In this document: positions 15,681 to 35,095 of the stretch, one piece after another | Position numbering within the stretch: position 1 is the first letter of the stretch | Layout: each line of letters opens with the position of its first letter | Source: Escherichia phage UE-S1 | Sequence record: ON568341.1 | Length of the DNA stretch: 64,000 nt | Direction: 5' to 3' (one strand) | Notes under the pieces: generated by a model | What the model saw: the letters and a program-made list of their open reading frames with translations, nothing else | What the model was told of the DNA's origin: nothing | Database searches by the model: none | Translations under genes and position numbers: made by a program

Positions 15681-16802
15681 TTAAAAGGGCAACGGTAACT
15701 CAGTAAAAGTACTTACGTCCGGTAAACCATACATTAAATTAGCATCACCACAGTAATACCACTTCGTAGAATCATGTACCACCGATAAACGCTGTGCACA
15801 TAACACTTCCTGTATGTCATTAAACACCATCGGGACTAACTCATATGTATCTGCAAATGAAGATTCACTACCACTCGCATGAAAAGTATTTGTCCCAGCA
15901 TAAAATAACTGATTAGTGTTCTTACCCACAGCAAATGTTATCAAAACCCCATCATTCTCCCATAAAGAAGAAAACTTATCAACACTACCAGAAAGCTCTG
16001 TGTAAGTACTCGTAATGGCACTCGCCGCCGCCGCATTACCCATCTGTTTATTCAAGTTCTGTCCAGCAATAAAATATCTCGTTCGTGCACTAGAATCAGT
16101 ATATAATAACCCAGTGTTCGTAGTCATCATTCCAATGTCCTTAATCGTCATATCAGTCTGTGAATAACTTAGATACGAAGTTAAATTAACATTATTACCC
16201 AACGAACCGTTAGAACTCATGCCACAACGATGTAATATACCACTTGTATCAACGTAGATAGTACTAACTAAACTCGTATACAACTCTTGTACATTATTCG
16301 CAATAAACACAGCAGTCGCCTTATTACTAACCCCACCAAATGATAGGTTATTATCAAATCCCTTAGCGTATAATTGATTATTAGTAGTCAATAATCCAAT
16401 CGTGTAATAAGACATTTTCATATCCCTTACTGTACTCAAATCTACTGCCCCAAATTGATACGTAACATCTGTCCATTTGAAAATCTGTGCACTACCAACA
16501 CCACCCGTTTCAAACCATTTGTCACCACAGTACAATATGCGATTATCCTTAGTAAAGATAACTGTTAACAATCCACTACCACACGCAAACTTTACATCAC
16601 TTCTAACCTTCGTCCAATCAAGTACATAGGTAGTGGTGTTATTACCTATACCTAACTTGCCATAACGGTTATAACCACGCACCCATAAATCACCACTCTT
16701 AGTAATTAATAGTAATGCGTCTCCTGTACTTATTATTCGAAATCCCGAACTAGGATCAGGGGCAATATTCCCGTACTTAACCATTCTCCCAAAAGGTAAC
16801 AT
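15681..16802 (-). CDS. RCC1-like beta-propeller protein with MLPFGRM tag (paralog 2)
   Basis: N-term MLPFGRMVKYGNI; YNRYGKLGIGNNT, MSSNGSLGNN repeats. Confidence 0.7.
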   Translation of the reverse strand: MLPFGRMVKYGNIAPDPSSGFRIISTGDALLLITKSGDLWVRGYNRYGKLGIGNNTTTYVLDWTKVRSDVKFACGSGLLTVIFTKDNRILYCGDKWFETGGVGSAQIFKWTDVTYQFGAVDLSTVRDMKMSYYTIGLLTTNNQLYAKGFDNNLSFGGVSNKATAVFIANNVQELYTSLVSTIYVDTSGILHRCGMSSNGSLGNNVNLTSYLSYSQTDMTIKDIGMMTTNTGLLYTDSSARTRYFIAGQNLNKQMGNAAAASAITSTYTELSGSVDKFSSLWENDGVLITFAVGKNTNQLFYAGTNTFHASGSESSFADTYELVPMVFNDIQEVLCAQRLSVVHDSTKWYYCGDANLMYGLPDVSTFTELPLPF

Positions 16803-16875
16803 ATTTTCCTCCTTTATTCATTATACTATATTTAATACAAAAAGAAATGCCAGTATCAAGTACTGGCATATTAAT
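16803..16875 (-). promoter_or_regulatory. intergenic cassette: terminator hairpin + promoter + SD
   Basis: GCCAGTACTTGATACTGGC hairpin; GTATTAAATATAGTATAATGAATAAAGGAGG. Confidence 0.5.
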
Positions 16876-18024
16876 TCATTGTATAAATGACATATCTACT
16901 TCTGTATAATTAAGAACGTTCTGTCCAGAAATACCACCCATTACTACTATTGCAAGGCCACAATAATATAATTTTCCAGTATCCGTAAGTATAAGTGATC
17001 CAGATGGACTGCGTACCAAATCACACGAACTATTAAAAGAAGTATAAGAAGGAGTATAGGAGTACTGATTATTATTATTACCAACACCTAATTGCCCAAA
17101 CCCATTCGATCCAGAAGCATATAGAACTTCATCTGCTTTGACAATATGTGATGCCATGTTACCAACACAAGTATATAGAGTATAAACTCCTGAACTCAAT
17201 AATGTCGGAGTTTTATATTGTATATCTGTAGATGTAGAAGTACCACCTGTACCAAATTCGTTCCCATATTGTGCACCGAACTGTTTGCCACAAGCGTACA
17301 AATTATTATCCGATTTGATAAAAAATGTACTCTGATAACTTACATTAAAATCTATAACATCCGAAGAAATCATCGTCACCCCAGTAATAGAAGTTTGATT
17401 ACCCGTGCCCAACTGGTAGTAATAGTTAAAACCACAACCCCATAAAGTATTATCTTCTCGCAAATAAATGTTACCAACTGCCTTTTTAACCGAAGTTATA
17501 GTATCTACTCTTTTGAATGTGTTAAAAGAATTAATGTTTGTACCATCACCAAATGATGATATGTTCGATATATTGTTAACTCCACAACAATACAATGTAC
17601 CATCTTTTGTTATCAAATTCACCTTCATATCATAAAAACTACTCATGTATTTTATATCAGAAACATTAACACCACTTGATGTTATCCACGTAGTACAGTC
17701 CGTCCACAAAGTTTTTCTATCAGTTACACCAGTGAATGCCTTCGTGTTACCAGTGATAAAAACTTTTCCAGTACCTTTCTCTTCATACAATTGACAATCA
17801 CTACTGTTATCTTCCAATAGAACTCGTTTAACATTCTCCGCACAAAGAATAAATTTACTCGATGCTACACCTGTACCAGTACCCCAATTCGTCGCAGAAG
17901 ATGCATACAACTTATCAGTATAAGTATCATGAAGATACATAGAATCACTGGAATATATTTTAAAACGCCCTTCTTTCTCAGGTATAATATTCCCGTACTT
18001 AACCATTCTCCCAAAAGGTAACAT
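16876..18024 (-). CDS. RCC1-like beta-propeller protein with MLPFGRM tag (paralog 1)
   Basis: N-term MLPFGRMVKYGNI; GSNGFGQLGVGNNN, FNYYYQLGTGNQT repeats. Confidence 0.7.
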   Translation of the reverse strand: MLPFGRMVKYGNIIPEKEGRFKIYSSDSMYLHDTYTDKLYASSATNWGTGTGVASSKFILCAENVKRVLLEDNSSDCQLYEEKGTGKVFITGNTKAFTGVTDRKTLWTDCTTWITSSGVNVSDIKYMSSFYDMKVNLITKDGTLYCCGVNNISNISSFGDGTNINSFNTFKRVDTITSVKKAVGNIYLREDNTLWGCGFNYYYQLGTGNQTSITGVTMISSDVIDFNVSYQSTFFIKSDNNLYACGKQFGAQYGNEFGTGGTSTSTDIQYKTPTLLSSGVYTLYTCVGNMASHIVKADEVLYASGSNGFGQLGVGNNNNQYSYTPSYTSFNSSCDLVRSPSGSLILTDTGKLYYCGLAIVVMGGISGQNVLNYTEVDMSFIQ

Positions 18025-18060
18025 ATTCCCTCCTTATTCATTATATCATATTTACCCAAA
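18025..18060 (-). promoter_or_regulatory. promoter + SD of first array gene
   Basis: minus strand GGTAAATATGATATAATGAATAAGGAGGG-ATG. Confidence 0.45.
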
Positions 18061-18065
18061 AAACA

Positions 18066-18094
18066 CTTGACACCCTTTCAGTACTGTTGTACAA
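18066..18094 (+). promoter_or_regulatory. sigma70-like promoter (divergent from array)
   Basis: TTGACA(18066-18071), 17 nt spacer, TACAAT(18089-18094). Confidence 0.5.
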
Positions 18095-21598: not shown

Positions 21599-22700
21599 TT
21601 AAACACATATAGACAGGGGAAGCTCCGTAGTGGAAGCATTATACAGGCTTTAACATATGTTGCATATGTTAAAATTCAGCCTGGACAAATGCGATCACTA
21701 GGATTCTCCCCAGGCTAAACCCCGTAACTCTACAGAGAAGCCAATAGCTTCTCTTTGTCATAGGTAGTCATAAGTAATCATATATAAACATTTAAGTAAT
21801 CATTCATACGCACGGTAGTGATTAGTATTGAGTACTAGAGTACAGGAATGTTCACGTTTAATCAAGAACGTAGCAGTACTGCCCCAAAAGTATTCAGTAC
21901 TGAAGGTGTCGATATCCCACTAAGTAGGCAGAGGAAGTCTGCCGTACTTTGTAGTTTCCAAGCTCCTTTTCCATTTTTCAAATTACATCAAATGTATTCA
22001 AAAGTAATCACGTAATGATTAGTACTGAATTATTACTTTCACCTTAATTCCAAATACTCTTTTACCCTTCGGGGAAAATCCCATTACCCCTTGAGGCTCC
22101 AGCAAAAAGTTGGAAAGTACTCCATCGTAAATCTGGATCGTAAAAATTTTGGAGTACCTATGAAATAAAAGTTGGATCTTCGAAAGTTGAAATTTACGTT
22201 GGGACATATAGGATTGATGGGATATAATGAGTTTTGTAGAGATACAGATTATACGATTTCAGTACTGAATAATGAAAGAAAGCTATTGACTTTATGATTC
22301 AGTACTGTATAATGTTCTATATAGAGAGATGAGTTGCCGCAAACAATTCATTCACTCTACCTCCTGTCGTGAGACAGTACAGAAAAGATAGTTCCTCCTA
22401 TGGGTGGTACATCTTTTTATAACCTCTTTTTTCGTAATATAAACAGTACTGATATTAACAGAATGGTGTCAGTACTGATTTTAATCTAATACAATACACC
22501 CACCAGCTTGTGCTGGTGGATTATCCACTAACAGTATTCAGTACTACATGATAGTCTTCATCCTCCTAGGGTAACATAGTGAGGGCTATTGTGGGAGTAC
22601 TGAATACTCCTTTCACAAGATAGATCTATGGTATAGTACTGACGGATTTTGGGCGTAGTAAGCCTAGGTTAAATTTAGACGTAGAGATGTCTAGACCTCC

Positions 22701-23579: not shown

Positions 23580-23607
23580 TTGCACAGTACTGAAAAAAGC
23601 GTATAAT
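23580..23607 (+). promoter_or_regulatory. early sigma70-type promoter
   Basis: TTGCAC, 16 nt spacer, TATAAT(23602-23607); GTTTTACATC start region then 5' hairpin. Confidence 0.55.
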
Positions 23608-23661: not shown

Positions 23662-24024
23662 ATGGCGACTCAAATCACTAAAATCATTGCTAACCTGGTT
23701 AACTTCCGCGACGATATGAAAGATCTTCCGGCGGCAACGGTTAAAACTCACATTGACGCATACCGCGAACTGATTAAAATGTTGCCGCTTAAGCGTGAAC
23801 AATACGCCGCTAAACTGATGCTTGATGCGATGATCCATAAGATGATCGCCAGTGATTTGACGATGGTTTATCAGTATATGGGCGAAAATTTCGCGGTGTA
23901 TAGTAAACCAGTACCAGGAATGGAAAGTACAGAAGTATTACACGGTTTAAATTTAAAACAAGATGCATGGGATAATATGCCTCGTTTCCTGGTATGGGCT
24001 GACAGTGGCAAAATTTACGAATAA
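23662..24024 (+). CDS. hypothetical early protein (120 aa)
   Basis: ORF after promoter + leader hairpin; AAGAGA SD-like. Confidence 0.55.
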   Translation: MATQITKIIANLVNFRDDMKDLPAATVKTHIDAYRELIKMLPLKREQYAAKLMLDAMIHKMIASDLTMVYQYMGENFAVYSKPVPGMESTEVLHGLNLKQDAWDNMPRFLVWADSGKIYE

Positions 24025-24037
24025 GTTAAAAATTAGT

Positions 24038-24065
24038 TTGACAGTACTGAATAAAAGCGTATAAT
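24038..24065 (+). promoter_or_regulatory. early sigma70-type promoter
   Basis: TTGACA(24038-24043), 16 nt spacer, TATAAT(24060-24065). Confidence 0.55.
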
Positions 24066-24116
24066 GTTTTACATCAGGTGGGGAATAGTTCCCCACTATA
24101 TAAGAGGATTAAAAAA

Positions 24117-24356
24117 ATGGCTAAATCAAAAATGTTCTTAGGTCACAAAAACAAAACTCATTGGAATGTAAGCCTGTGGATTAATAACGATGAGGGATTG
24201 TATCGGTTGGCCCTGGACTTTATTGCCGCCCATACTAATCGCAATGATGCGGCCCGTCATATGATGTTATTTTTAGAACAGACTGGACAAGATAAAACAC
24301 CGGACGGATTCAAATATAGCACTACTGCGATCCGTGCGGCGATGGTTGGAATGTAA
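24117..24356 (+). CDS. hypothetical early protein (79 aa)
   Basis: ATG 24117 after AAGAGGA SD; paralog of 26157..26396 (KNKTHWNVSLWINN..TPDGFKYSTTAIRAAMVGM). Confidence 0.55.
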   Translation: MAKSKMFLGHKNKTHWNVSLWINNDEGLYRLALDFIAAHTNRNDAARHMMLFLEQTGQDKTPDGFKYSTTAIRAAMVGM

Positions 24357-24442
24357 TAGAATTTATTTAAAGTACTATCATTTTTTTGCGATAGTACTTT
24401 ATAATAGTGTTTTATTCATACACCAACGATAAGGGCAACAGC

Positions 24443-24709
24443 ATGAATATTAAGTATTTTGCGACGCGTGAACAAGCTCGGATCGCCGCACGCCAGGACG
24501 GGGCAACGTTTAAAGATATGGGCGTACAATCGGAACGTGGTAAACGTTGGGCCATTGTAAAGCGTAGTACCGCCAGATCATTACAGTACTGGTTAGCGGC
24601 CTTAAAAAGTCCCGATAGTGTATCGCGTCGAGTGGTAGAAATAAAGCTCGACCGAAAGGGCAACCGCGTGACTGTGTACCGTACTAAAAAGATTGCAGTA
24701 CTTGAATAA
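24443..24709 (+). CDS. hypothetical early protein (88 aa)
   Basis: ATG 24443; paralog of 36151..36546 (FATREQARIAARQ..DRKGNRVTVY). Confidence 0.5.
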   Translation: MNIKYFATREQARIAARQDGATFKDMGVQSERGKRWAIVKRSTARSLQYWLAALKSPDSVSRRVVEIKLDRKGNRVTVYRTKKIAVLE

Positions 24710-24716
24710 AAAGTAC

Positions 24717-24744
24717 TTGCAAACTATGTTTAAAGGCGTATAAT
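24717..24744 (+). promoter_or_regulatory. early sigma70-type promoter
   Basis: TTGCAA(24717-24722), 16 nt spacer, TATAAT(24739-24744); leader hairpin GCGGGAACTCTTCCCGC. Confidence 0.55.
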
Positions 24745-24796
24745 GTTTTACATCGAGAGCGGGAACTCTTCCCGCCTATAACCTGGAGTAATAAAA

Positions 24797-25027
24797 ATGA
24801 CTAATATGTATATGACTGAAGTTAAAACCGTAAAAGATACTACCACGAATAAAACTACTTACTTACAGCGGATCTGTGGTGTATGGCAACGTATCAGCAA
24901 ATCAAAGTACTTTAAATTAACATCATATGCAAACCGTTCGGATTCATTCAGTACTGAAATAAAAGGTAATAAAGTACACCAATACGGCACTTATTATTAT
25001 TACAGCCTGGACGCGATTGCAGTATAA
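24797..25027 (+). CDS. hypothetical early protein (76 aa)
   Basis: ORF after promoter/hairpin; GGAG SD. Confidence 0.5.
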   Translation: MTNMYMTEVKTVKDTTTNKTTYLQRICGVWQRISKSKYFKLTSYANRSDSFSTEIKGNKVHQYGTYYYYSLDAIAV

Positions 25028-25278
25028 TCATATTTTTTGAAAAATTTACAATTGCCGGTATTGACTTATTTTGTCAGTACTGGCATAATGTATTCATTGG
25101 CAGATAAGCCGTAGCCCATAGGGTGCGGGAGTGTATCTATAGAAAAATTAGTTTAGTATAGTTACAATTGTGCACCCGGTGGGTTAGCTGTTGTCATGGG
25201 GTATATTATGCCAGTACTTGATAATGCTGTCAATACTTTTTTTACTATTCAGTACTGAAAACTATTTTTAAAAAGTAC

Positions 25279-25306
25279 TTGCTAACTATGTTTAAAGGCG
25301 TATAAT
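25279..25306 (+). promoter_or_regulatory. early promoter (upstream of tandem promoter pair)
   Basis: TTGCTA, 16 nt spacer, TATAAT(25301-25306). Confidence 0.5.
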
Positions 25307-25400
25307 GTTTTACATCAGGACGGGGAACGAAATAAGTAACCCCGTTAAGTAGTCCAGGAGTAAGACATACGAAAAACTCCCCTGATAAAATAGTTTGACA
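25301..25400. repeat. 100-bp exact repeat (copy 1) carrying structured leader
   Basis: Appears identical by eye to 35214..35313. Confidence 0.7.
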
Positions 25401-25422
25401 AATGTTTTTAAAAGCGTATAAT
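25395..25422 (+). promoter_or_regulatory. early promoter (downstream of tandem promoter pair)
   Basis: TTGACA(25395-25400), 16 nt spacer, TATAAT(25417-25422). Confidence 0.5.
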
Positions 25423-25454
25423 ACTTACATCAACTACTGAATGAGGGTTACAAA

Positions 25455-26066
25455 ATGAAAACTATCACTACTACTACTTTTGTTATGGCTTTTTCTGAAC
25501 TGAACGCAGAACAAAAAACGGCGGCTATCGAACTGGTTCGGGATCGTGAGCGTTCATGTGAGGATAATTTCTTTGCTGAGGGCGTTATCGAGTACTATAA
25601 AGAAACAGTACTACCAGAATACGGCATAGATGAAGCTGAATTGCAATACAGTGGTTTTTGGTCGCAAGGTGACGGTGCATCAATCAGTACTGACAGCGTG
25701 GACGCGGAGAAGTTTTTACGCAAGATTAAAGCGTTAACGAAATATCGTTCTATCCGTCACTTGTTGAATGAAGATGATTTGGCAATGAGTGTAGAACGTT
25801 CACACTCTCGCTACGCACACGAAAACACGGTAAGCGGTTGCGTTGATACTCGCTACACTGATTTAACTGTAAAACAAGCGGCACTTGCTGATGACCTGGA
25901 AAACTTACTGACTGATGCGATCCGTGAATTATCTCGTAAGTTGTACCGTGATTTAGAGAATGCATATGAGGATCAATTCACTACTGAAAACATTACTGCA
26001 CTGATTGAGGGTAACGAATATCAATTCAATGTTATTGATGGCGTAGTGGAATCAATCGAATATTAA
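25455..26066 (+). CDS. hypothetical early protein (203 aa)
   Basis: ORF after dual promoters; GAGGG SD. Confidence 0.55.
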   Translation: MKTITTTTFVMAFSELNAEQKTAAIELVRDRERSCEDNFFAEGVIEYYKETVLPEYGIDEAELQYSGFWSQGDGASISTDSVDAEKFLRKIKALTKYRSIRHLLNEDDLAMSVERSHSRYAHENTVSGCVDTRYTDLTVKQAALADDLENLLTDAIRELSRKLYRDLENAYEDQFTTENITALIEGNEYQFNVIDGVVESIEY

Positions 26067-26078
26067 TTCAAAAAGTAC

Positions 26079-26106
26079 TTGTAAACTAAGTTTAAAAGCG
26101 TATAAT
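26079..26106 (+). promoter_or_regulatory. early sigma70-type promoter
   Basis: TTGTAA, 16 nt spacer, TATAAT(26101-26106); hairpin GCGGGGAGTGGTTCCCCGC. Confidence 0.5.
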
Positions 26107-26156
26107 ACTTTACATCAAGGCGGGGAGTGGTTCCCCGCTCAAACGAGGATTTAAAA

Positions 26157-26396
26157 ATGGCTAGTACTAAAACTTACAACGGACACAAAAACAAAACTCA
26201 TTGGAATGTAAGCCTTTGGATTAATAACGGTGAGTCATTGTATCGGCTTGCACAAAGTTGCATCGCACAAAGTAGAACTAAAGATATTGCTGCGGAATGT
26301 ATGTACCGCAGATTAAAAGCCAACGGTACTACTACAACACCGGACGGATTCAAATATAGCACTACTGCGATCCGTGCTGCAATGGTTGGAATGTAA
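26157..26396 (+). CDS. hypothetical early protein (79 aa)
   Basis: ATG 26157 after ACGAGGA SD; paralog of 24117..24356. Confidence 0.55.
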   Translation: MASTKTYNGHKNKTHWNVSLWINNGESLYRLAQSCIAQSRTKDIAAECMYRRLKANGTTTTPDGFKYSTTAIRAAMVGM

Positions 26397-26453
26397 TATT
26401 CAGTACTGAGATAATGGCGGGTAATAGTTCCCGCCTTTACTGAGGGTTATCTA

Positions 26454-26714
26454 ATGAGTAAAGTAATTAGCTATACAGCACTAAGCAAGACATTATCTAT
26501 TAGCCAGTGCACCGATGGTTATTGGCTATTTGATGAAACGCGTGGCATGAATTTAGCCATGCGTGCAAAAACTGCTGAGGCGGCGTATCTTGAAGCATTG
26601 GAATACTACCAGGAACGTTTAAAGGAAGTAGAAGAAGATTATAAAAGCCTCAAAGCGAAAGTAGATCATTTCGTCGGTCAATTCATCGAGGAAGACGACG
26701 ACAAACAATATTGA
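26454..26714 (+). CDS. hypothetical early protein (86 aa)
   Basis: ORF with GAGGG SD. Confidence 0.5.
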   Translation: MSKVISYTALSKTLSISQCTDGYWLFDETRGMNLAMRAKTAEAAYLEALEYYQERLKEVEEDYKSLKAKVDHFVGQFIEEDDDKQY

Positions 26715-26722
26715 AAAAGTAC

Positions 26723-26750
26723 TTGCAATTAGTTTTCAGTACTGTATAAT
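26723..26750 (+). promoter_or_regulatory. early sigma70-type promoter
   Basis: TTGCAA(26723-26728), 16 nt spacer, TGTATAAT(26743-26750). Confidence 0.55.
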
Positions 26751-26800
26751 GGTTTACATCAAAGGGAGAAATGGTTCTCCCTGGTAATGAGGAAAATAAA

Positions 26801-27022
26801 ATGGCTAATATCACTACTCTTTCCCAACTGGAAGCACTGGTGAAATCTATGCGGGAACATGCCGACAAAATCGGCGTACAAGATCCAGCCGTTTGCTTCT
26901 GCGACGAATTGAATGATGATACACTGGTAATAGCAGAAGTCCAGGACGTTTCTAACTATTCCTCGCGTTACACTGGCGGCGTAGCAAATAAAGGCGACTT
27001 CTGTTTATACCTTACAAAATAA
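26801..27022 (+). CDS. hypothetical early protein (73 aa)
   Basis: ATG 26801 after TGAGGAAA SD and leader hairpin GGGAGAAATGGTTCTCCC. Confidence 0.5.
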   Translation: MANITTLSQLEALVKSMREHADKIGVQDPAVCFCDELNDDTLVIAEVQDVSNYSSRYTGGVANKGDFCLYLTK

Positions 27023-27190
27023 CAACGCGGGGAGATAATAACTCCCCGTTACTTTTTCAGTACTGAATCATTTAATAGACGGATCTCGGCACCCGGTGGG
27101 TTAGTGACTGTTTCGTCTTGATGTAGTAATTATGCCAGTACTGGATGCACTTGTCAACAACTATTTTTCAAATACTTTTTATTAAAATAC

Positions 27191-27218
27191 TTGCAATTAG
27201 TTTTTAAACGCGTATAAT
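27191..27218 (+). promoter_or_regulatory. early sigma70-type promoter
   Basis: TTGCAA(27191-27196), 16 nt spacer, TATAAT(27213-27218). Confidence 0.55.
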
Positions 27219-27265
27219 GTTTTGCATAGGGGGAGCGGTTCCCCTGGTAACTAAGGAATAAGAAA

Positions 27266-27502
27266 ATGCTCGAACAAATCAAATCAACGTCTGCGAATGT
27301 AACGGGAACTGTATCACACTTTACTAGTGATGAATCGCGTGGTGTTCCTTATTGTGCTGTACATGTAAACACTGATGGCAACTACTGGTTTACGGTTTAC
27401 GGATCATATTCATTTGGTCGGCCAGGACATCAAAAAATCCTGGATAAAGTACAGCCAACGGGTAAAAATATCACTGCTGAAATGTTTTATAAAAAATCAT
27501 AA
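27266..27502 (+). CDS. hypothetical early protein (78 aa)
   Basis: ORF after leader hairpin GGGGGAGCGGTTCCCC; AAGGAA SD. Confidence 0.5.
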   Translation: MLEQIKSTSANVTGTVSHFTSDESRGVPYCAVHVNTDGNYWFTVYGSYSFGRPGHQKILDKVQPTGKNITAEMFYKKS

Positions 27503-27507
27503 AGTAC

Positions 27508-27535
27508 TTGATAATAGTTTTTAGTACTGTATAAT
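27508..27535 (+). promoter_or_regulatory. early sigma70-type promoter
   Basis: TTGATA, 16 nt spacer, TGTATAAT(27528-27535). Confidence 0.5.
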
Positions 27536-27586
27536 ATTTTACATCGCAAGGGGGAGCGGTTCCCCCTGGTAACTAAGGATAATAAA

Positions 27587-27886
27587 ATGAAAATTGCAAT
27601 CATCGCCCTGGCTTTATCTGTTTCCTCTTTCGCTGTTAATGCGTCATTAGATGTAAGTAGTGAAAAATTCATTCAGTGCACTGTTGCAATGACCGATGAA
27701 AGTACTGGCGAGATTGTATTAAAGGATTTAGAGATCCAGCCGGAAGCATTTAAAAACGGCCCGTTCCATGAAGAAGACGAAAACGGTAGCACATCAATTT
27801 ATTATGATGCCAGTACTAAACGCGGTTCGGTCACTGTAATGGATACTGAGAAAGTAACGCATACCGGCGTTATTAATTGCCGTTGA
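27587..27886 (+). CDS. small secreted/periplasmic protein (signal peptide)
   Basis: N-term MKIAIIALALSVSSFAVNA-S resembles Sec signal peptide with AxA cleavage site. Confidence 0.5.
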   Translation: MKIAIIALALSVSSFAVNASLDVSSEKFIQCTVAMTDESTGEIVLKDLEIQPEAFKNGPFHEEDENGSTSIYYDASTKRGSVTVMDTEKVTHTGVINCR

Positions 27887-27907
27887 TAGATACTACGGGG
27901 TAACATC

Positions 27908-28138
27908 ATGACTAAGCGAATTGTTTTACTTAACGAAAGCAGTACTACACAACTACTTAACGCCGTGCATTATGATATTGAAACGAGCGTTAATCTTATC
28001 AGTACTGTAGTACTGTTGGACACTGGAAAGGTCGCCAATGATAAAGCGATTGCAGGTATATTAACGGATCTTGAGCCTGGTAGCAGTGCACCAATAACGT
28101 TAAATGGTAAAGTGTTTAATATTTTACTCACTGATTAA
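27908..28138 (+). CDS. hypothetical early protein (76 aa)
   Basis: ORF with GGGG SD-like; followed by terminator. Confidence 0.45.
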   Translation: MTKRIVLLNESSTTQLLNAVHYDIETSVNLISTVVLLDTGKVANDKAIAGILTDLEPGSSAPITLNGKVFNILLTD

Positions 28139-28144
28139 GTACAT

Positions 28145-28166
28145 AGCCCACCTGGTGGGCTTTTTT
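28145..28166 (+). terminator. intrinsic terminator
   Basis: AGCCCACCTGGTGGGCT hairpin + TTTTTT. Confidence 0.6.
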
Positions 28167-28220
28167 GTTTTTGTAGTATCGTAGTACTGAGATACTTTGA
28201 AAATAGTTTTAAGAAAGTAG

Positions 28221-28248
28221 TTGACATTACCGCAGAAAAGCGTAGAAT
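28221..28248 (+). promoter_or_regulatory. early sigma70-type promoter
   Basis: TTGACA(28221-28226), 16 nt spacer, TAGAAT; followed by ~120 nt structured leader. Confidence 0.45.
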
Positions 28249-28371
28249 GTATTACATCAAGACGGGGAGCACTAAGTAGACCGCCAGTAAGTCGAACGAA
28301 AAACTGGACACGTCGAGAAAACTTTGATACACTAATAAACGTAAACTAAACTTTAATTGAGGATTTATAAA

Positions 28372-28854
28372 ATGGCTAATGTAAAATCATTTCTGAAAGC
28401 ACTGATTTCTAACGACACTGCTATTGCGGCTGAATTGCTGGCGGATCTGGATAGCGATACCATGAAAGCAGTACGCAACAATTTTAACATTGCGTACAGT
28501 GAAGCTAAAGAACTGCAAGCCAAAAAGATAGCAGAACTGGAAGAACAGAAAAAAGCCCGTGAAGAAGAACTACAAGCAACGATTGAAAGTATTCAGGCGG
28601 CGGTTGCAGGGTTGGATCTGGAAGTAGTTATTGAAATGGCACATAAAGCACTGGCAGTTAAGTACGGGGAAGATAAGCCAGTAACTAAACCTAAAAAATG
28701 GATTCAGGAACGCGTAACGGTTGTTCTTGATAATGGCGAGGAACATTTAATTCCCGTGCGTGGTAACTGCATTGCGGTAGTTCTGGATGCTATCAAAGAA
28801 AGCGGATTGACTCGCGAGGAATGGATCGAAGCTCACCGCAAAATTGAAGCATAA
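28372..28854 (+). CDS. hypothetical early protein (160 aa)
   Basis: ATG 28372 after TGAGGA SD; track ORF 28357 trimmed. Confidence 0.5.
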   Translation: MANVKSFLKALISNDTAIAAELLADLDSDTMKAVRNNFNIAYSEAKELQAKKIAELEEQKKAREEELQATIESIQAAVAGLDLEVVIEMAHKALAVKYGEDKPVTKPKKWIQERVTVVLDNGEEHLIPVRGNCIAVVLDAIKESGLTREEWIEAHRKIEA

Positions 28855-28875
28855 CAATTAAAGTACTGAATCACT

Positions 28876-28902
28876 AGCCCACTTCTTATAGTGGGCTTTT
28901 TT
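28876..28902 (+). terminator. intrinsic terminator
   Basis: AGCCCAC-ttcttata-GTGGGCT hairpin + TTTTTT. Confidence 0.6.
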
Positions 28903-29129
28903 GTGTTTATCGTTTACCAGTCCACTAGCACCGCCTAGAATCGATTCTAACGCATTAAACTGATTATCTGATGAATAGCCCTAGCTGGTGGCGTTAATGC
29001 CGTTAGAAAGCGATTGAGGACGTTTAAAGTATTTTGCAAAAAGTAATAAAAAGTACTTGCACGATTAAGAGATTAGAGTATAATTAATTACATCAAGACA
29101 AGACACCTTAACTAACTGAGGATATAAAG

Positions 29130-29282
29130 ATGAATACTTATGAACTGGATTGTTTCACTTTACAAGTAATGTCAGTATGCAGTAAAAAAGATTGGTCATC
29201 AAAGGAATTTAAAGCAGTTATTGCGTGTGCAAAACACGGCAAGACTATCAATGAAACGGCATCAATCATTGATAAACTTTAA
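29130..29282 (+). CDS. small early protein (50 aa)
   Basis: TGAGGA SD; preceded by TTGCAC..TATAAT promoter; under ORF-track cutoff. Confidence 0.4.
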   Translation: MNTYELDCFTLQVMSVCSKKDWSSKEFKAVIACAKHGKTINETASIIDKL

Positions 29283-29290
29283 AAAATAGT

Positions 29291-29319
29291 TTGACAATAG
29301 TTTTAAGTACTGCGATAAT
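29291..29319 (+). promoter_or_regulatory. early sigma70-type promoter
   Basis: TTGACA(29291-29296), 17 nt spacer, GATAAT. Confidence 0.45.
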
Positions 29320-29354
29320 ACATACATCAACTACTGAATAGGAATAAAAAAACA

Positions 29355-29582
29355 ATGGCTATCATCATTACTTACGTATCTGGTACTACTGGCACTGCTT
29401 CAACTGTTGCTGTAATTACTAATAAGAAAGGAGCGGAATTACATTTTGCAATGGATAATTGGGCCGTGAAGGAGTTCGGACCGTGGGCAAGTGTAGCATA
29501 CATTGAAACCTATCAAGTGCCATCGATTAGCTTAACTGATTTAGGTGTAGATCGAATCTTATGCCTGGATGAATTAATTTAA
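29355..29582 (+). CDS. hypothetical early protein (75 aa)
   Basis: ORF downstream of promoter; weak SD. Confidence 0.45.
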   Translation: MAIIITYVSGTTGTASTVAVITNKKGAELHFAMDNWAVKEFGPWASVAYIETYQVPSISLTDLGVDRILCLDELI

Positions 29583-29668
29583 AAAAGTACTTGCAAAGTA
29601 AATCGAATAAAGTATAATACATTACATCAAGGGGAGAAAATGGTTCTCCCCACTAAGAGGAAACTAAT

Positions 29669-29812
29669 ATGAAAACTTGTCAATGTGGTAAAAAATCTAT
29701 TACTGGTTTGAAACGGGGCGTTGCACTTTGCCAGTACCATTATAATTTACAAGTATGGGGTAAAGAATGGGCCGATCAAGTGGAAGCAATTAAGAAAGCA
29801 AAAAGTAAGTAA
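29669..29812 (+). CDS. small Cys-containing early protein (47 aa)
   Basis: AGAGGAAA SD after leader hairpin GGGGAGAAAATGGTTCTCCCC; CxC..C pattern. Confidence 0.4.
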   Translation: MKTCQCGKKSITGLKRGVALCQYHYNLQVWGKEWADQVEAIKKAKSK

Positions 29813-29893
29813 AAATATTATCACAGTACTATTGACATAGATTGATAGTACTGGCATAATAGATTTTATCAAGACAACTAAGAGGAAATTAAA

Positions 29894-30238
29894 ATGGCTA
29901 ACATCAATACTATAGCAGCACAAAATATTAACCTGTCTTCTGTTGAAGTTGTACACATTGCCGCCCGGCGTTGGTTCCAGGCGTCTTATGGTAATACTTA
30001 TTTCTCTTTAACGGTAGATGTTGAAATCAATGGCGAATTTATTGAAGTAGTAAACGTGCCGTTCCAATATGGCTACGGGGATCATTTTGACACTGTAGCA
30101 ATGGAAGAATTTAGCAAGGTTATTAATATGGAAGGTAAAGAGTTTTTACGCGGTTCTTATCTTTCCCGTTTTTGCCGTGATAATAATATTACTGTTTATA
30201 GTTCTGTTAGTGATGTTAAACGCAAAAAAGATCTTTAA
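29894..30238 (+). CDS. hypothetical early protein (114 aa)
   Basis: AGAGGAAA SD; paralog of 35732..36055 (shared ..YGYG.. and C-terminal DVKRKKD). Confidence 0.55.
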   Translation: MANINTIAAQNINLSSVEVVHIAARRWFQASYGNTYFSLTVDVEINGEFIEVVNVPFQYGYGDHFDTVAMEEFSKVINMEGKEFLRGSYLSRFCRDNNITVYSSVSDVKRKKDL

Positions 30239-30318
30239 TTAGCTTTACTTTATGCAGATACTTTGATATAGTGTCTGCATAGGGGAAAGAAATTAAATCA
30301 ACTTAAGAGGATAGTAAA

Positions 30319-30588
30319 ATGAAAAATATCAGTACTTTAATCGATGCAGGCACACATGTTCGTCGGTCTATGGTTGCAACCAGTTCTACAAAACAAGTAG
30401 CGAGCGGTTATCTTGTATTTGTGCACGATGGAAAACTCCTGGAACGTTCAATCAATTTTGATGTTAAAAACAATTGCCGTTTTATTATCTTTAAGCGTGA
30501 GCAATATAAAATTGATTTACCAGCAAAGCCCATTAGTGGGGCGTACAACGTGCAATCATTGTTTGAGCGTCAACCATACACCTATTAA
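30319..30588 (+). CDS. hypothetical early protein (89 aa)
   Basis: AAGAGGA SD. Confidence 0.5.
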   Translation: MKNISTLIDAGTHVRRSMVATSSTKQVASGYLVFVHDGKLLERSINFDVKNNCRFIIFKREQYKIDLPAKPISGAYNVQSLFERQPYTY

Positions 30589-30639
30589 TCAAAACAACGT
30601 TAGCGGTCGATTTAGGCCGCTTATACTGGGGATTATATA

Positions 30640-30810
30640 ATGAATACTAATCAAGTACTGAACGAGATTGAAAGCATCATTAAACCGATGAAGCGTACTG
30701 ATGCAATGTTAACACCGGAAGAATGCCGCTTATATGAGCGTTACAGCGTCGAACAAGTCCAGGCAATGGCCCGTATCCGTCCGGTTGCCAGTACTGATAA
30801 GGCGGCGTAA
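30640..30810 (+). CDS. small early protein (56 aa)
   Basis: GGGG SD-like; TAATATG coupling to next gene. Confidence 0.4.
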   Translation: MNTNQVLNEIESIIKPMKRTDAMLTPEECRLYERYSVEQVQAMARIRPVASTDKAA

Positions 30811-30811
30811 T

Positions 30812-31021
30812 ATGCTTACTGTACAGGATAAGATCGACATCTTAAAGGTTAATATGTATGTGATTGATGCCGTACCTGGTAAAGTATTTGCATACGATGA
30901 CACCACTGTAAGCAATTTCTACTATAGCCAGGACGTGGGGGATCTTTCTGTACAGTCGGTTATTGAAAATGTAGTTAATGCAGCGTATGAGCATTTACTT
31001 TCAAATAGTACTTGCAATTAG
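30812..31021 (+). CDS. hypothetical early protein (69 aa)
   Basis: ATG 30812 immediately after upstream stop; track ORF 30734 trimmed. Confidence 0.45.
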   Translation: MLTVQDKIDILKVNMYVIDAVPGKVFAYDDTTVSNFYYSQDVGDLSVQSVIENVVNAAYEHLLSNSTCN

Positions 31022-31090
31022 TTTTCAGTACTGTATAATGTTTTACATGAAGGGGAGAAATAGTACTCCCCACTAATTAAGGAATATGAA

Positions 31091-31237
31091 ATGAAAGCAT
31101 CAAAAAAGAGTAATACTAAGAAAGCATGTTCACCTTTCGCTGGGGTATTCCCTTTACGTTTCGTTGATGAAGTGGTTTCCTACCCGCCGGGCCTTACTCC
31201 TGAGATGGTAGAAAGTTTGCGTAAATCTAAAAAATAA
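31091..31237 (+). CDS. small early protein (48 aa)
   Basis: AAGGAA SD after promoter TTGCAA..TGTATAAT and leader hairpin. Confidence 0.4.
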   Translation: MKASKKSNTKKACSPFAGVFPLRFVDEVVSYPPGLTPEMVESLRKSKK

Positions 31238-31318
31238 TACTTGCAATTAGTTTTTAGTACTGTATAATGTTTTACATGAAGGGGAGAAATGATTCTCCCC
31301 AAGAACAGGAGAAACAAA

Positions 31319-31471
31319 ATGAAACAATACAACGCTCGGTTTGATGTTACTATCGGCAACGGCAAAGGTCAATTCTCTTTCAGTACTCGTAAGAGTTATA
31401 CAGAAAACTTCTTGCGTAATTGTGCACTGACCGCCGCACAAATTAAACATTATTTTCAGGCTAAAAAATGA
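31319..31471 (+). CDS. small early protein (50 aa)
   Basis: ATG 31319 after CAGGAGAAA SD and leader hairpin GGGGAGAAATGATTCTCCCC. Confidence 0.45.
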   Translation: MKQYNARFDVTIGNGKGQFSFSTRKSYTENFLRNCALTAAQIKHYFQAKK

Positions 31472-31706
31472 AATCATTAGCTTATTATAGTTCGGCCCTG
31501 GTCGGTGCATTGATCGCGGCATTGTTAGTAGCTTATCTATTCTTTATGGTGATTTAAATGAATCCTAACGGTATAATTTACAGTACTCCTAAAACGAAAG
31601 CAGATAAAGCTAAAGCACGTAAAGCGAAAGTAAAGGAATACATCAAGCAAGGCATGACACGAAAGGCGGCGATTCTAAAAGCTAAAAATAAATGAAAAAA
31701 GTGGTT

Positions 31707-31744
31707 GACTTCGGTCAGCCATTTTGCTATTATATAATCATTGA
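31707..31744 (+). terminator. terminator hairpin with embedded promoter (composite element)
   Basis: GTGGTTGACTTCGGTCAGCCA + TTTTGCTATTATATAATC; TTGACT inside stem. Confidence 0.5.
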
Positions 31745-31837
31745 GAGATAGCTCACTAGCCCACGGGGTGCGGGAGTGTATCTATTATATAAGCATTGAG
31801 TACTGAAAACTATTTTAAAAGTATTTGCAGAAAGTAC

Positions 31838-31865
31838 TTGCAAACTATCTCAATTGGCGTATAAT
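31838..31865 (+). promoter_or_regulatory. early sigma70-type promoter
   Basis: TTGCAA(31838-31843), 16 nt spacer, TATAAT(31860-31865). Confidence 0.55.
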
Positions 31866-31916
31866 GTTTTACATCGCAAGGGGAAACGGTTTCCCCTAGT
31901 AATAAGGAATAAAATC

Positions 31917-32258
31917 ATGACTATTGCAATTGTACAATCTAACTTTGAAAATGAAATCATCGCCCAAGCACTGCGTTTAAATGATGGTCGGGCCGAAATT
32001 AATTACGGTTTCAATTCAGGCGGTTGTGAAAAATATCAGTACTTTATAACTGCTGATGGCGGTGTCCTGGGTATTAATACAGTTATTGTAAACATTCAGA
32101 AAATTAATTTCAATGATCCAGACGATAGCCAGTTTTACATTATAGGCGTAGACGTGAACTATGAGGATGACTCACTAACTGATGATTACACTGGCGAGAA
32201 GTTAGAAAGTGCATACGGTGAAGATGATTATCAGTCAGTACCAGAAGATTTCGAATAA
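31917..32258 (+). CDS. hypothetical early acidic protein (113 aa)
   Basis: ATG 31917 after TAAGGAAT SD and leader hairpin GGGGAAACGGTTTCCCC. Confidence 0.55.
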   Translation: MTIAIVQSNFENEIIAQALRLNDGRAEINYGFNSGGCEKYQYFITADGGVLGINTVIVNIQKINFNDPDDSQFYIIGVDVNYEDDSLTDDYTGEKLESAYGEDDYQSVPEDFE

Positions 32259-32358
32259 TATTAAAAAATAGTTTGACAATAGATTATAGTACTGTATAAT
32301 AGTTTACATCAAGAAACGGGAAGTAACAGTACTTCCCTACTAACAGAGAGAAAACAAA

Positions 32359-32571
32359 ATGGCTGATATCCGCACTTTACTGAAAAATGCAAAACGAGTT
32401 TTATTTTCTGATCACGAACATTTAAACAAGGATATTACTGGCGTTCGGAATATCAAAGATGTAAAACGTGTTATGGGTATCTATTGCAATATGAAACGTG
32501 TTGGCACGTTCGGTAATAAATTTCTATACCAGGCGGGGGATTACAATTTTACACTGACTATCATTAACTAA
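32359..32571 (+). CDS. hypothetical early protein (70 aa)
   Basis: AGAGAGAAA SD after hairpin; promoter TTGACA..TGTATAAT upstream. Confidence 0.5.
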   Translation: MADIRTLLKNAKRVLFSDHEHLNKDITGVRNIKDVKRVMGIYCNMKRVGTFGNKFLYQAGDYNFTLTIIN

Positions 32572-32653
32572 AAATATTATCACAGTACTATTGACATAGT
32601 TTGATAGTACTGGCATAATAGATTTTATCAACTACACTACTAAGGAATTAAAA

Positions 32654-32833
32654 ATGGCTATCATCGCAAAAACTGAAATCATCGGCCTGGATTCTATCAT
32701 CATGACGTTTGAAGATCAAAAAGGTATGTATGTAGTTTCCTATGGTGATTATGTTCGGGAGTATGAAACAGTAGACGAAGCCTTTGAAAGTTACATTCGC
32801 CAGGTGAATAAAGCATACGACGATTACCGCTAA
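32654..32833 (+). CDS. small early protein (59 aa)
   Basis: TAAGGAAT SD; promoter TTGACA..GGCATAAT upstream. Confidence 0.45.
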   Translation: MAIIAKTEIIGLDSIIMTFEDQKGMYVVSYGDYVREYETVDEAFESYIRQVNKAYDDYR

Positions 32834-32946
32834 AATATATTACCAGTACTATTAAAGATATTGACAACGTTTGATAGTACTGGCATAATAAGTTTTATAA
32901 ACAGTAGTCAAATAGTAGTTAACTTAACAAAAGAGAGAGAAACAAA

Positions 32947-33090
32947 ATGATCGCACTGGATTCATTCATCGATGCAGTTCTGGCAAAAACTGGCGAGGAT
33001 CTGACCGCAGAACAATACGCAATGATCGAGCAATGCCAGCAAGACGGTAAATCGGTGAAAGATACTGTTAAGATTATCCGCAAGATGTAA
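32947..33090 (+). CDS. small early protein (47 aa)
   Basis: AGAGAGAGAAA SD-like; followed by hairpin AGCCCAT..GGTGGGCT. Confidence 0.4.
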   Translation: MIALDSFIDAVLAKTGEDLTAEQYAMIEQCQQDGKSVKDTVKIIRKM

Positions 33091-33196
33091 GATTATAAGC
33101 CCATTAGTTAACGCTGGTGGGCTTTAATCATTTACCCTATACAATGCCAGTACTAAACCGTTTATCTCATTAGAATGCATTACAGGACGTTTAACA

Positions 33197-33394
33197 ATGA
33201 TTAGCATGAAATCAGTACAAAAACAAATAGAAACATTATCAAAAATTAAACGTAAACAGTACTCATTAGAATATAATATCAATGGTAACTATCATCTAAT
33301 GAAAGAGAATAATTTTATCGTCATTGATGAATCATTGCAAATTATTAGTATAGTACTGAAAGCATTAATTAATGATAGAAAAAGGTTAAAATAA
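33197..33394 (+). CDS. hypothetical protein (65 aa)
   Basis: ORF; TAATG coupling to zinc-finger gene. Confidence 0.45.
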   Translation: MISMKSVQKQIETLSKIKRKQYSLEYNINGNYHLMKENNFIVIDESLQIISIVLKALINDRKRLK

Positions 33395-33651
33395 TGGCAG
33401 TAGGATTCGCGAAAGATGGAGCCGAGCAAGATGAGATTAACGCAGTTATTCAAGCCGCCGTTAACCACGCTAGAAAGCAAATTAACGCACAAATAGAATC
33501 ACTGATACATTGCCTCGACTGCGGCGATAAAATCCCTGAGAATCGCCGACAGGCTGTTAAGGGATGTAAGTACTGCATTAATTGCCAAGTGGATCATGAT
33601 AGTACTTTTAAAAGAGATCCGCGTAATTGTTGGCATAGATCTATGAGATAA
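33394..33651 (+). CDS. C4 zinc-finger protein (DksA/TraR-like)
   Basis: C-x2-C (HCLDCGD) ... C-x2-C (KYCINC) spacing typical of DksA/TraR-type zinc fingers. Confidence 0.55.
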   Translation: MAVGFAKDGAEQDEINAVIQAAVNHARKQINAQIESLIHCLDCGDKIPENRRQAVKGCKYCINCQVDHDSTFKRDPRNCWHRSMR

Positions 33652-33715
33652 AAAGTAATTGACAGTACTGAAAGATAGTGTATAATGTTTTATATCTTAA
33701 CTGAGGATAGAAATC

Positions 33716-34072
33716 ATGGGAATACAACATATCACGCGGACCACTGACAATGGCGAGATCACTGGTTATCAAGTACAGGGCAAAGTAGCACAATTGCAGT
33801 ACTGGTTTGTTAAACGTGGAATCATTGCACCGGATCTTGATTATGACCGTGTAGCGTTTATTGATTCTCTTTATGTTGATCCTGATAGTCGGGGCAATGG
33901 TGAAGGTAACGAATTAATGAATGCCTTTATCGATGCCGCCGATGATTCAGATTGTATCATCTTAGAATGCGATACGGGAGAAGATAACGCCTTTAATCTT
34001 AAAGAATGGTACGAAGGATTCGGATTCGAGGTACTGATCGATAGTGAATATCCTATCATGATTTTATCATAG
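33716..34072 (+). CDS. GNAT-family acetyltransferase-like protein
   Basis: LYVDPDSRGNGEGNELMNAF resembles GNAT motif A (R/Q-x-x-G-x-G/A); promoter TTGACA..TGTATAAT upstream. Confidence 0.5.
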   Translation: MGIQHITRTTDNGEITGYQVQGKVAQLQYWFVKRGIIAPDLDYDRVAFIDSLYVDPDSRGNGEGNELMNAFIDAADDSDCIILECDTGEDNAFNLKEWYEGFGFEVLIDSEYPIMILS

Positions 34073-34150
34073 TACTTGCATTTAGTTTTCAGTACTGTTA
34101 TAGTACTTGCATCAAGGGGAAACATCTTCCCCTACTAAGAGGAAATAAAA

Positions 34151-34339
34151 ATGGAAAACTTATCAAGTATTTTAGTACAAGATGATTTCGGTAATCCTGG
34201 AAGTGCTATCATTGTTCGGGGCAATAAAGCAACGTTTGTTATTGCTGGTGGACCCGTACAGCGTAGCATTAAAAATAATGCTGTTACCATTAATAATGTA
34301 CGCTATCGCTTAGATAAAGAATTAATTCATAAACTGTAA
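34151..34339 (+). CDS. hypothetical early protein (62 aa)
   Basis: AAGAGGAAA SD after leader hairpin. Confidence 0.5.
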   Translation: MENLSSILVQDDFGNPGSAIIVRGNKATFVIAGGPVQRSIKNNAVTINNVRYRLDKELIHKL

Positions 34340-34424
34340 AAAAGTACTGGACAATAGATTATAGTACTGTATAATAGTTTACATGAAGGGGAGAAATGAT
34401 TCTCCCCACTAAGAGGAAAGAAAA

Positions 34425-34637: not shown

Positions 34638-34723
34638 AAAGTACTTGCACAGTACTGAATAAAGTGTATAATGTTTTATATCGGAAGGGGAATAGTTCCC
34701 CTCCTAACAAAGAGGAAAGTATA

Positions 34724-35057: not shown

Positions 35058-35095
35058 GGGATTGACTCCGGTCAGTCCCTTTGCTATTATATACG
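35058..35095 (+). terminator. terminator hairpin with embedded promoter (composite element)
   Basis: AAAAAGGGATTGACTCCGGTCAGTCCCTTTGCTATTATATA. Confidence 0.55.

Follow-up and report, generated by a model that had tools for sequence, protein, structure and literature searches.

Within a 64,000-nt stretch of the genome of Escherichia phage UE-S1 (sequence record ON568341.1; hereafter, at its full length, the window), the same DNA segment is present twice, each time in front of a different gene. A sequence-only reading of this stretch had described the segment as a 100-bp exact repeat carrying tandem promoters and a structured leader, and had attributed it to recent copying or strong selection. 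Exact-match extension upholds the identity of the two copies but sets its length at 104 bp; copy A (25298–25401) and copy B (35211–35314) both lie on the plus strand and share the letters GCGTATAATGTTTTACATCAGGACGGGGAACGAAATAAGTAACCCCGTTAAGTAGTCCAGGAGTAAGACATACGAAAAACTCCCCTGATAAAATAGTTTGACAA. Each of them reaches from the -10 element of one sigma70-type promoter (P1) across a leader RNA domain to the -35 element of a second sigma70-type promoter (P2), so that the repeat represents two copies of a portable early-gene cassette consisting of P1, a structured leader of about 72 nt, and P2. The main interest of this cassette resides in the membership of its leader in a conserved RNA family that reaches phage T7, rather than in the repeat itself, which reflects gene conversion.

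The repeated cassette and its genomic setting

The promoters of the cassette were located by a consensus scan. P1 reads TTGCTA-16-TATAAT in copy A (25279–25306), where it belongs to the early-promoter repeat family D1, and TTGCAA-16-TATAAT in copy B (35192–35219), while P2 matches the consensus at 12 of 12 positions (TTGACA-16-TATAAT) at both places (25395–25422 and 35308–35335). All four promoters are directed along the plus strand, as are the leader RNA domains enclosed by them (25314–25386 in copy A and, at an offset of +9913, 35227–35299 in copy B), which were delimited through minimum free energy folding, RNAalifold and covariation counts. Copy A is followed on the same strand by a gene for a protein of 203 aa (25455–26066; PHROG 5162) and copy B by one for a protein of 91 aa (35369–35644; PHROG 14947); both are of unknown function, and their assignment to different PHROGs marks them as unrelated. 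Promoter scan, fold and PHROG assignments thereby bear out the earlier description of tandem promoters that flank a structured leader in front of unrelated genes.

When up to three mismatches were allowed, the 81-nt core of the repeat had only these two sites in the window (none expected from 100 shuffles). On both sides of the identical tract, the similarity breaks off: gapless identity amounts to 22, 12 and 26 matches per 60-base block upstream, and to 36 of 60 in the adjoining downstream block, followed by 19, 20 and 14 per 60. The higher value just 3' of the tract belongs to the block in which the promoter consensus common to both places persists.

The window stems from an Asteriusvirus, a jumbo coliphage of the 121Q/PBECO4 type, and is 90–97% identical to 121Q, PBECO4, G17 and JNE01. 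By homology, its part from about 21.6 to 43 kb is the counterpart of the direct terminal repeat of about 21.5 kb annotated in vB_Ec-M-J; in fEgEco12, a terminal repeat of about 21 kb has been established experimentally (PMC13070987). Early genes transcribed by the host polymerase are densely packed in this terminal-repeat stretch. Its sigma70-type promoters include at least 25 that belong to a single family, AAAAAGTACTTGCAA-N16-TATAATGTTTTACAT (about 25 sites between 22286 and 40918, for instance 24717–24744, 29591–29618 and 38192–38219). Behind nearly all of these, only a few nucleotides away, come a short GC-rich 5' hairpin of the GGGGAGAAAUGGUUCUCCCC type and then NCUAA...AGGA, with a Shine-Dalgarno sequence. 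Several of the early transcripts begin with ATCGAGAGGG, the first ten transcribed bases of T7 A1.

Listing the sequence that follows each promoter exposed a third and diverged paralogue of the element, copy C (28255–28328), with the sequence ACAUCAAGACGGGGAGCACUAAGUAGACCGCCAGUAAGUCGAACGAAAAACUGGACACGUCGAG.... Its promoter (TTGACA-16-TAGAAT, 28221–28248, consensus scan) directly follows a predicted terminator at 28145–28161, its leader RNA domain occupies 28256–28328, and the gene behind it encodes a 160-aa protein of unknown function (28372–28854; PHROG 27871); promoter, domain and gene are all on the plus strand. P1 of copy B is likewise the first promoter after a predicted terminator (35055–35082), and terminators come 0.6–1.7 kb 3' of copies B and C. 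Copy A is preceded by 250 bp of intergenic sequence that holds promoter-like sites of opposite orientation. Copy C is kept in other Asteriusviruses.

Structure and covariation of the leader RNA

The 88-nt transcribed stretch folds with -21 kcal/mol (z = -2.75), and RNAalifold and single-sequence folds yield the same architecture. In the 5' to 3' direction, copies A and B comprise a closing helix (25314–25319/25381–25386 in copy A), hairpin 1 (25320–25325/25340–25345), a UAAGUAG linker (25346–25352) and hairpin 2 (25357–25361/25376–25380). The closing helix joins the first transcript bases, AUCAGG, with CCUGAU located right after hairpin 2, and the result is a three-way domain of about 72 nt. 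Two of the pairings that had been read from the sequence alone are retained here, that of GGGG with CCCC as hairpin 1 and that of AGGAG with CTCC as hairpin 2, the latter with compensatory changes across phage families. The proposed GGAC...GTCC pairing had to be given up: in 7 of 15 sequences its A-U pair is lost, and no compensating change restores it. The outer helix is formed by AUCAGG/CCUGAU instead.

Behind hairpin 1, the conserved core of the element comprises the linker, UAAGUAG-N-C-N, and the 5-bp hairpin 2 with its loop (A)UAAG(U/A)C-NN-A(C/U)GAAAA(A/C), of which (A)UAAGUC-NN-AYGAAAAA is the conserved form. For 34 distinct sequences aligned with MAFFT, pairing holds in 91.8% of the hairpin 2 cells, and four of the five pairs display double-sided changes. 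The covariation score of 0.62 (0.20 in shuffled alignments) was reached by none of 500 shuffles, and the pairing drops to 23–47% in shifted registers. Stems recorded for hairpin 2 are GCCUG/CAGGC, GCCUG/CAGGU, GCUUG/CAAGC, ACCUG/CAGGU, CCAGU/ACUGG, GGAGU/ACUCC, ACUUG/CAAGU and UCCUG/CAGGA. Hairpin 1, which is ACGGGG/CCCCGU in copies A and B, appears elsewhere as CCGG/CCGG, ACCG/CGGU, CCAG/CUGG, CCAC/GUGG, CGGG/CCCG, GCUG/CGGC or GGGAUG/CAUUCC, and all four of its pairs covary in the T7-like phages. In a model-fitted alignment, which leans towards the structure, the nine pairs of the two hairpins are 100% paired and seven of them show double changes, again with none of 500 shuffles reaching this level. 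Both hairpins are thus strongly backed by covariation. G·U pairs, which would be C·A mismatches on the opposite strand, are frequent in the stems, and the structure therefore belongs to the sense RNA.

A further interaction is suggested by the variable base of the discarded pairing, a base of the linker that changes together with a base in the loop of hairpin 2, a pattern that argues for a pseudoknot. The linker and loop triplets are GAC/GUC in the T7-like phages and in copy C, GUC/GAC in copies A and B, and GCC/GGC in the A copies of vB_Ec-M-J, PBECO4, JP4 and JNE01 as well as in outra and muut, with EmilieFrey representing a C·A intermediate. In the T7-like Hafnia phage yong1, GUC/GAC is found on a hairpin 2 stem of the T7 type. 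Across the family, the middle pair accordingly occurs as A-U, U-A and C-G. We therefore propose, with moderate confidence, that G-N-C of the linker may pair with G-N'-C of the loop (25352–25354/25364–25366 in copy A) in an H-type pseudoknot whose stem 1 would have 3 bp, its first loop 1 nt, hairpin 2 as its stem 2, and an A-rich third loop of 10 nt.

Helices of differing sequence enclose the core in eight of nine variants outside the T7 group. Other myovirus versions employ GACG/CGUC, CAGG/CCUG, AUCAA/UUGAU, GACGG/CCGUC, CAUC/GAUG together with CGG/CCG, or CGGC/GCCG. Copy C is enclosed by GACG/CGUC and AUCAAG/CUUUGAU; its core (28272–28310) has CCAGU/ACUGG as hairpin 2, and hairpin 1 is absent. 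In the Vequintavirinae phage A7_1, the promoters are of another flavor (TAAGAT as the -10 element), and the conserved block corresponds exactly to the stretch from the start-site region CATCAGG to CCCCTGATAAAA, as is expected of an RNA domain.

Small H-type pseudoknots that recognize a ligand or a protein, such as those in the T4 gene 32 leader, in ribosomal-protein operon leaders, in the preQ1-I and SAM-II aptamers, in the type III antitoxin ToxI and in the phage "pseudo-ToxI", are among the closest comparisons. The element shares with them its compactness, a first loop of 1 nt, an A-rich third loop, conserved unpaired bases and the location in a 5' leader, and phage RNA decoys of this size are known. 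It differs from them in having no Rfam match at E <= 10, no expression platform, no tandem 36-nt repeats and no toxin gene. With Rfam 15, no match in the window attained the gathering thresholds; at E <= 10, the element itself produced merely a chance match to Plastid-rps18 on the other strand (E = 9), and nothing relevant was returned for T7 positions 480–930. We rejected a riboswitch since there is no terminator platform, the promoter and genes downstream are variably spaced and different, respectively, and the AGGAG of hairpin 2 is not conserved. A type III antitoxin of the ToxI type, or a pseudo-antitoxin, was rejected as well: the units are single and about 3–10 kb apart, and no plasmid or E. 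coli homologue was found, which is a weak test at the sequence level. The element belongs to a kind that is already known, the structured 5' leader or pseudoknot; the family and its distribution are new. The literature that we consulted on Asteriusvirus promoters, Vequintavirinae transcriptomes and the T7 A1–A2 spacer contained no description of it.

Distribution of the motif among phages

With the 81-nt element as the query, blastn matched 44 phage records, which represent three lineages. All Asteriusviruses have two copies of it per genome unit, and the A/B type occurs once each in the Justusliebigvirus phages muut, outra and EmilieFrey and in A73, W70, A7_1 and A5-4 of the Vequintavirinae, at 89–94% identity, with a promoter on each side and with differing downstream genes. 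In muut (positions 2440–2920, compared with window positions 35160–35644), the element, P2 and the gene for the 91-aa protein are all close to the cassette of copy B. This likeness indicates that an entire cassette was probably transferred between phage subfamilies.

Copy C extends the family considerably. With this copy as the query, blastn reached phages of the T7 group (phiA1122, 13a and others), jumbo phages resembling Munch, Erwinia phage Hallingskeid and vB_EcoM-LTH01. The counterpart in T7 itself is located at about nt 538–592, with the motif also placed at 531–589; the E. coli promoters that are annotated there start with A1 (498) and A2 (626), which enclose it, and a third is at 750. 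Positions 498–640 of T7, used as the query in turn, retrieved 489 phage records, whose listed hosts are Escherichia, Klebsiella, Salmonella, Yersinia, Enterobacter, Citrobacter, Shigella, Serratia, Pantoea, Hafnia and Pectobacterium. A looser gapped pattern contributed 34 more true instances from IMG/VR; the strict core pattern returned only 121Q-like copies, or none, from IMG/VR, metagenomes and species genomes.

To the promoter region A1-A2-A3 of T7, and to those of T3, phiYeO3-12, Kayfunavirus and others, the element is related by homology and not merely by analogy. In the T7 spacer, hairpin 1 and UAAGUAG are succeeded by a hairpin 2 that has an identical loop, after which the next -35 element follows, and both systems have the motif set between two strong host promoters. 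The T7-like phages have one copy per locus examined, lack the closing helix and possess an additional 5' hairpin ahead of the motif; the gap to the following -35 element is 2–3 nt in most of them and 18–41 nt in a few. UE-S1, by contrast, has three copies per terminal repeat, each with the domain at the 5' end of the transcript and closed by a helix, and P2 is placed 14 nt beyond the core in copies A and B. The spacer between A2 and A3 of T7 (626–750) shares with that between A1 and A2 the elements GUCAAC..., UUAAGCGCAC and AUAAGGUGAAACAAAAC, and the same -35 context, TTGACAACATGAAGTAA.

Membership in the family was scored with R1, a covariance model covering 39 positions of the core. R1 has exactly three matches in the window, all on the plus strand: the cores of copy A (25345–25383; 53.6 bits, E = 3e-13), copy B (35258–35296; 53.6 bits) and copy C, which is the best of the window with 55.9 bits, whereas the next best match scores 8 bits. 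True loci score at least 48 bits (61.9 in T7), and chance matches of the pattern at most 26 bits. A second model, R2, seeded on T7-like phages only and run with default filters, missed the copies of the window that R1 recovered. In 185,579 bacterial and archaeal genomes, the gapped pattern had 29 matches, which are all due to chance (at most 24 bits with R1) save for one T3-like contig, and blastn against E. coli genomes and plasmids revealed no host, prophage or toxin-antitoxin homologue. As far as the searched collections show, the motif appears to be confined to virulent phages of Enterobacterales. Its position is stereotyped: it is on the sense strand, within about 55 nt 3' of an early sigma70-type promoter, and another promoter is found downstream; in LIMElight, host promoters are annotated on both sides.

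Such regularity might in principle reside in the DNA, for instance in an upstream (UP) element, an operator or a decayed promoter and leader that appears conserved through horizontal spread and has no function as RNA. The A-tract of the loop does lie upstream of the next -35 element in T7, the leader is similar to the generic "hairpin-NUAAG-AGGAG" type found across the region, except that ATA takes the place of ATG, and recent transfer is evident. Yet three helices carry compensatory changes, and the G·U pairs suit one strand only. Moreover, hairpin 2 is separated from the -35 element that follows by 2 nt in T7, 17–19 nt in copies A/B and C, 41 nt in L026 and 47 nt in Munch, and the A-tract is separated from it by 7 nt in T7, 23–25 nt in copies A/B and C, and about 45–50 nt in L026 and Munch. 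With a spacing as variable as this, we rejected an UP element. A leader peptide or a relic of a small open reading frame (AGGAG-N6-ATA...TAG) was rejected too, as other members have ACA for ATA, and GCCAG or GCCUG for AGGAG, and keep the pairing. A purely DNA-level feature is consequently the explanation to which we attach the least weight, and we deem it most improbable.

Origin of the identity between copies A and B

In the relatives of UE-S1, the two copies are not identical and are about five positions apart. Copies A and B differ in 121Q, PBECO4, vB_Ec-M-J, JP4 and the closest relative, JNE01; the copies of CMSTMSU were left out of this comparison, since this low-quality, unverified assembly has homopolymer errors. 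The relatives' copy A, recognized as such by its position before the gene for the 203-aa protein, has a 2-nt insertion (CTTCCCGT or CTCCCTGT compared with CCCCGT) and, except in 121Q, three further substitutions (GCCC for GUCC and GGCAC for GACAU). In the window, the interior of copy A is of the B type, and the flanking promoter spacers are still of the A type. Given that the copies differ even in JNE01, their perfect identity is the outcome of a recent, short gene conversion in UE-S1. Copy A was converted by copy B after the split from JNE01, in an event specific to this phage that erased about five differences; the tract covers at least about 25340–25368 and at most 25298–25401. The recent copying envisaged in the sequence-only reading is thereby substantiated. 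It took place on paralogues that were already about 94% conserved, although their promoter spacers are unalike.

Proposed function of the leader RNA

The unpaired bases of the core are invariant across unrelated phages, and the stems drift with compensation. This combination argues either for specific recognition by a conserved partner or for a tertiary fold, and as the phages share little else, such a partner would most plausibly be a component of the host. In our judgment, the balance tips toward a portable cassette that carries a widespread phage RNA motif and works as RNA through putative recognition by a host component, and among the possible roles we favor, with modest confidence, that of a host-factor-binding immediate-early leader RNA. 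The element would then act as RNA and not as DNA, would be transcribed from very strong promoters within the first seconds of infection, and would exert its effect either while it still heads the P1 transcript or once released, as in T7 upon the RNase III cut at R0.3; most likely, a conserved host component would recognize the leader RNA specifically.

Several observations weigh against this proposal. The pseudoknot stem has just 3 bp with one covarying pair, and its states are perhaps co-ancestral by recombination, given that the loop of yong1 equals that of EmilieFrey. The absence of hairpin 1 from copy C and its relatives implies that not every part is essential. Asteriusvirus, Vequintavirinae and Justusliebigvirus are 89–100% identical in this element, and much of that likeness could stem from a recent horizontal transfer of the cassette instead of selection; in muut, the downstream gene moved along. 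In T7, the A2–A3 spacer is apparently a decayed duplicate without an R1 match, so that the element is dispensable for a layout of tandem promoters. Finally, we know of no report of anything unusual for this RNA from decades of in vitro work on T7 A1 templates.

A protective or insulating 5' domain that acts in cis is the first competitor to be considered. Here, the pseudoknotted 5' end would block attack by RppH and RNase E as well as RNase E scanning, so that P1 transcripts would outlive P2 transcripts, and it would also give them a standard 5' context whatever gene follows. Stabilizing stem-loops, such as that of the ompA 5' untranslated region, are likewise placed at the extreme 5' end, and the generic early leaders of the window look exactly so, with a GC-rich hairpin within a few nucleotides of nearly every early promoter. 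In the myovirus transcripts, moreover, the first nucleotides are held in a helix of lineage-specific sequence, and the cassette stands before unrelated genes. Unlike such stabilizers, however, the element possesses invariant unpaired sequence, a pseudoknot and conservation across families. A generic barrier needs no set of about 20 invariant unpaired nucleotides, and the sequences of the ordinary leader hairpins of the region vary freely. In the T7-like phages, there is no closing helix, and another hairpin precedes the motif, which begins at +30 to +55. In T7, RNase III severs the A1 leader from the messenger RNAs at R0.3, which argues against a purely stabilizing or translational role in cis in this phage. 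For these reasons, we regard a cis-acting domain as rather unlikely.

A second competitor takes the put sites of phage HK022 as its model. The cis-encoded putL and putR RNAs, about 65–70 nt long and made up of two structured elements just behind early promoters, target the host RNA polymerase without the help of phage proteins. By analogy, the nascent leader might bind the polymerase that made it and suppress pausing or termination, so that polymerases starting at P1 would read further or faster. Several traits fit such a modifier: the element lies close to the 5' end of the sense transcript from an early host promoter, is portable and is indifferent to the downstream gene; it has two structured elements within about 60 nt and conserved unpaired bases, and the phages that carry it are restricted to a single host order. 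As noted, copies B and C are served by the first promoters behind predicted terminators and are followed by others. However, R1 run with filters off on HK022 positions 24000–40751, the early region that holds putL and putR, gave 8.4 bits at best (E = 0.47), and a pseudoknot is not a feature of put. BoxA (GCTCTTTAACAA), as in the T7 leader, was not found above chance in the window. The early transcripts of T7, most of which come from A1, terminate efficiently at TE and are terminated by Rho in vitro, and this speaks against strong antitermination of the put type. A direct action on RNA polymerase is hence an option that we hold to be quite unlikely.

The earlier reading had also raised the possibility of a small regulatory RNA of about 90 nt between the two promoters. 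A stand-alone, base-pairing RNA of about 75–90 nt, starting at P1, ending before P2 and antisense to host or phage messenger RNAs, would profit from the strength of P1 and from a compact closed domain followed by an AU-rich single-stranded tail with a possible RNase E site, and in T7, the release of leaders by RNase III is established. Against this, a terminator scan detected no terminator-like site at 25313–25400 or 35226–35313, where the closing helix is followed by AAAAUAGUUUGACA; the interval from P1 to P2 lacks an intrinsic terminator and so does not encode a small RNA whose 3' end such a site would define. E. coli genomes contain no complementary match at the sensitivity of blastn, and the conserved bases reside in the pseudoknot and not in an accessible seed. 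We thus see very little room for a base-pairing RNA.

With a host-factor-binding leader RNA as the favored reading, its wider meaning can be sketched. The same RNA has spread horizontally into at least four phage lineages other than that of T7, including jumbo phages of 350 kb, and stands at the head of their earliest host-transcribed units, a pattern of distribution that points to a general host-directed function, probably exerted in the first seconds of infection. A more far-reaching version would see in it an immediate-early phage RNA of a new class, the earliest product of incoming T7-like, jumbo and rV5-like genomes, that binds a conserved host protein, such as a defense sensor or effector, an enzyme of RNA decay or a translation factor, and neutralizes or hijacks it. 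We put this forward as a tentative idea which deserves attention, although we would not count on it. If it were true, the RNA would be the counterpart of early anti-defense proteins such as Ocr. The left end of T7 is among the most studied of all DNA, and its A1–A2 spacer nonetheless carries a hairpin-pseudoknot that is supported by covariation and has no Rfam family; the motif is short and present in a phage as genetically tractable as T7. Should it turn out to be a mere ornament of the leader, the exact repeat would still be explained by gene conversion, and annotators would gain a model for a recurrent element of early regions.

Further features of the early region

Besides the promoters described above, the region contains a second class with an extended -10 element, TTGACA-17-TGGCATAAT with AGTACTG in front, at 25061–25089 (plus strand), 25205–25233 and 27129–27157 (both minus strand), 29832–29860, 32591–32619 and 32861–32889; a convergent pair of these promoters is situated just 5' of copy A. 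An element present in four copies (31685–31777, 35042–35134, 38049–38141 and 40308–40400, with an inverted relative at 25158–25209) combines a 12-bp terminator-like hairpin, AAAGGGATTGACTCCGGTCAGTCCCTTT, overlapping a promoter-like site (TTGACT-17-TATTAT), with a conserved small hairpin, AGCCCACNGGGUGC, that follows; a terminator/promoter junction and a short RNA are two possible readings of it. In the whole window, the 8-bp palindrome CAGTACTG is found 68 times where 0.87 would be expected (for example at 22300–22307, 23585–23592, 24042–24049, 26737–26744 and 31026–31033), often within the spacers of early promoters (TTGACAGTACTG..., ...CAGTACTGTATAAT), and could be an operator for a phage regulator or related to restriction-modification.

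Outside the cassettes, positions 8592–18068 on the minus strand hold nine paralogous units, each about 1.2 kb long, that have a conserved start region of 79–105 nt in common (families D8 and D11); in PBECO4, the neighboring genes are annotated as RCC1-like. Arrays of small paralogous genes with a spacing of about 212 nt and a common GGAACAAACTATCA(A/G)GA are found at 42025–47232 and 55714–62975 (D12, D13 and D17), and more repeated gene families of the window are D9, D14, D15 and D19.

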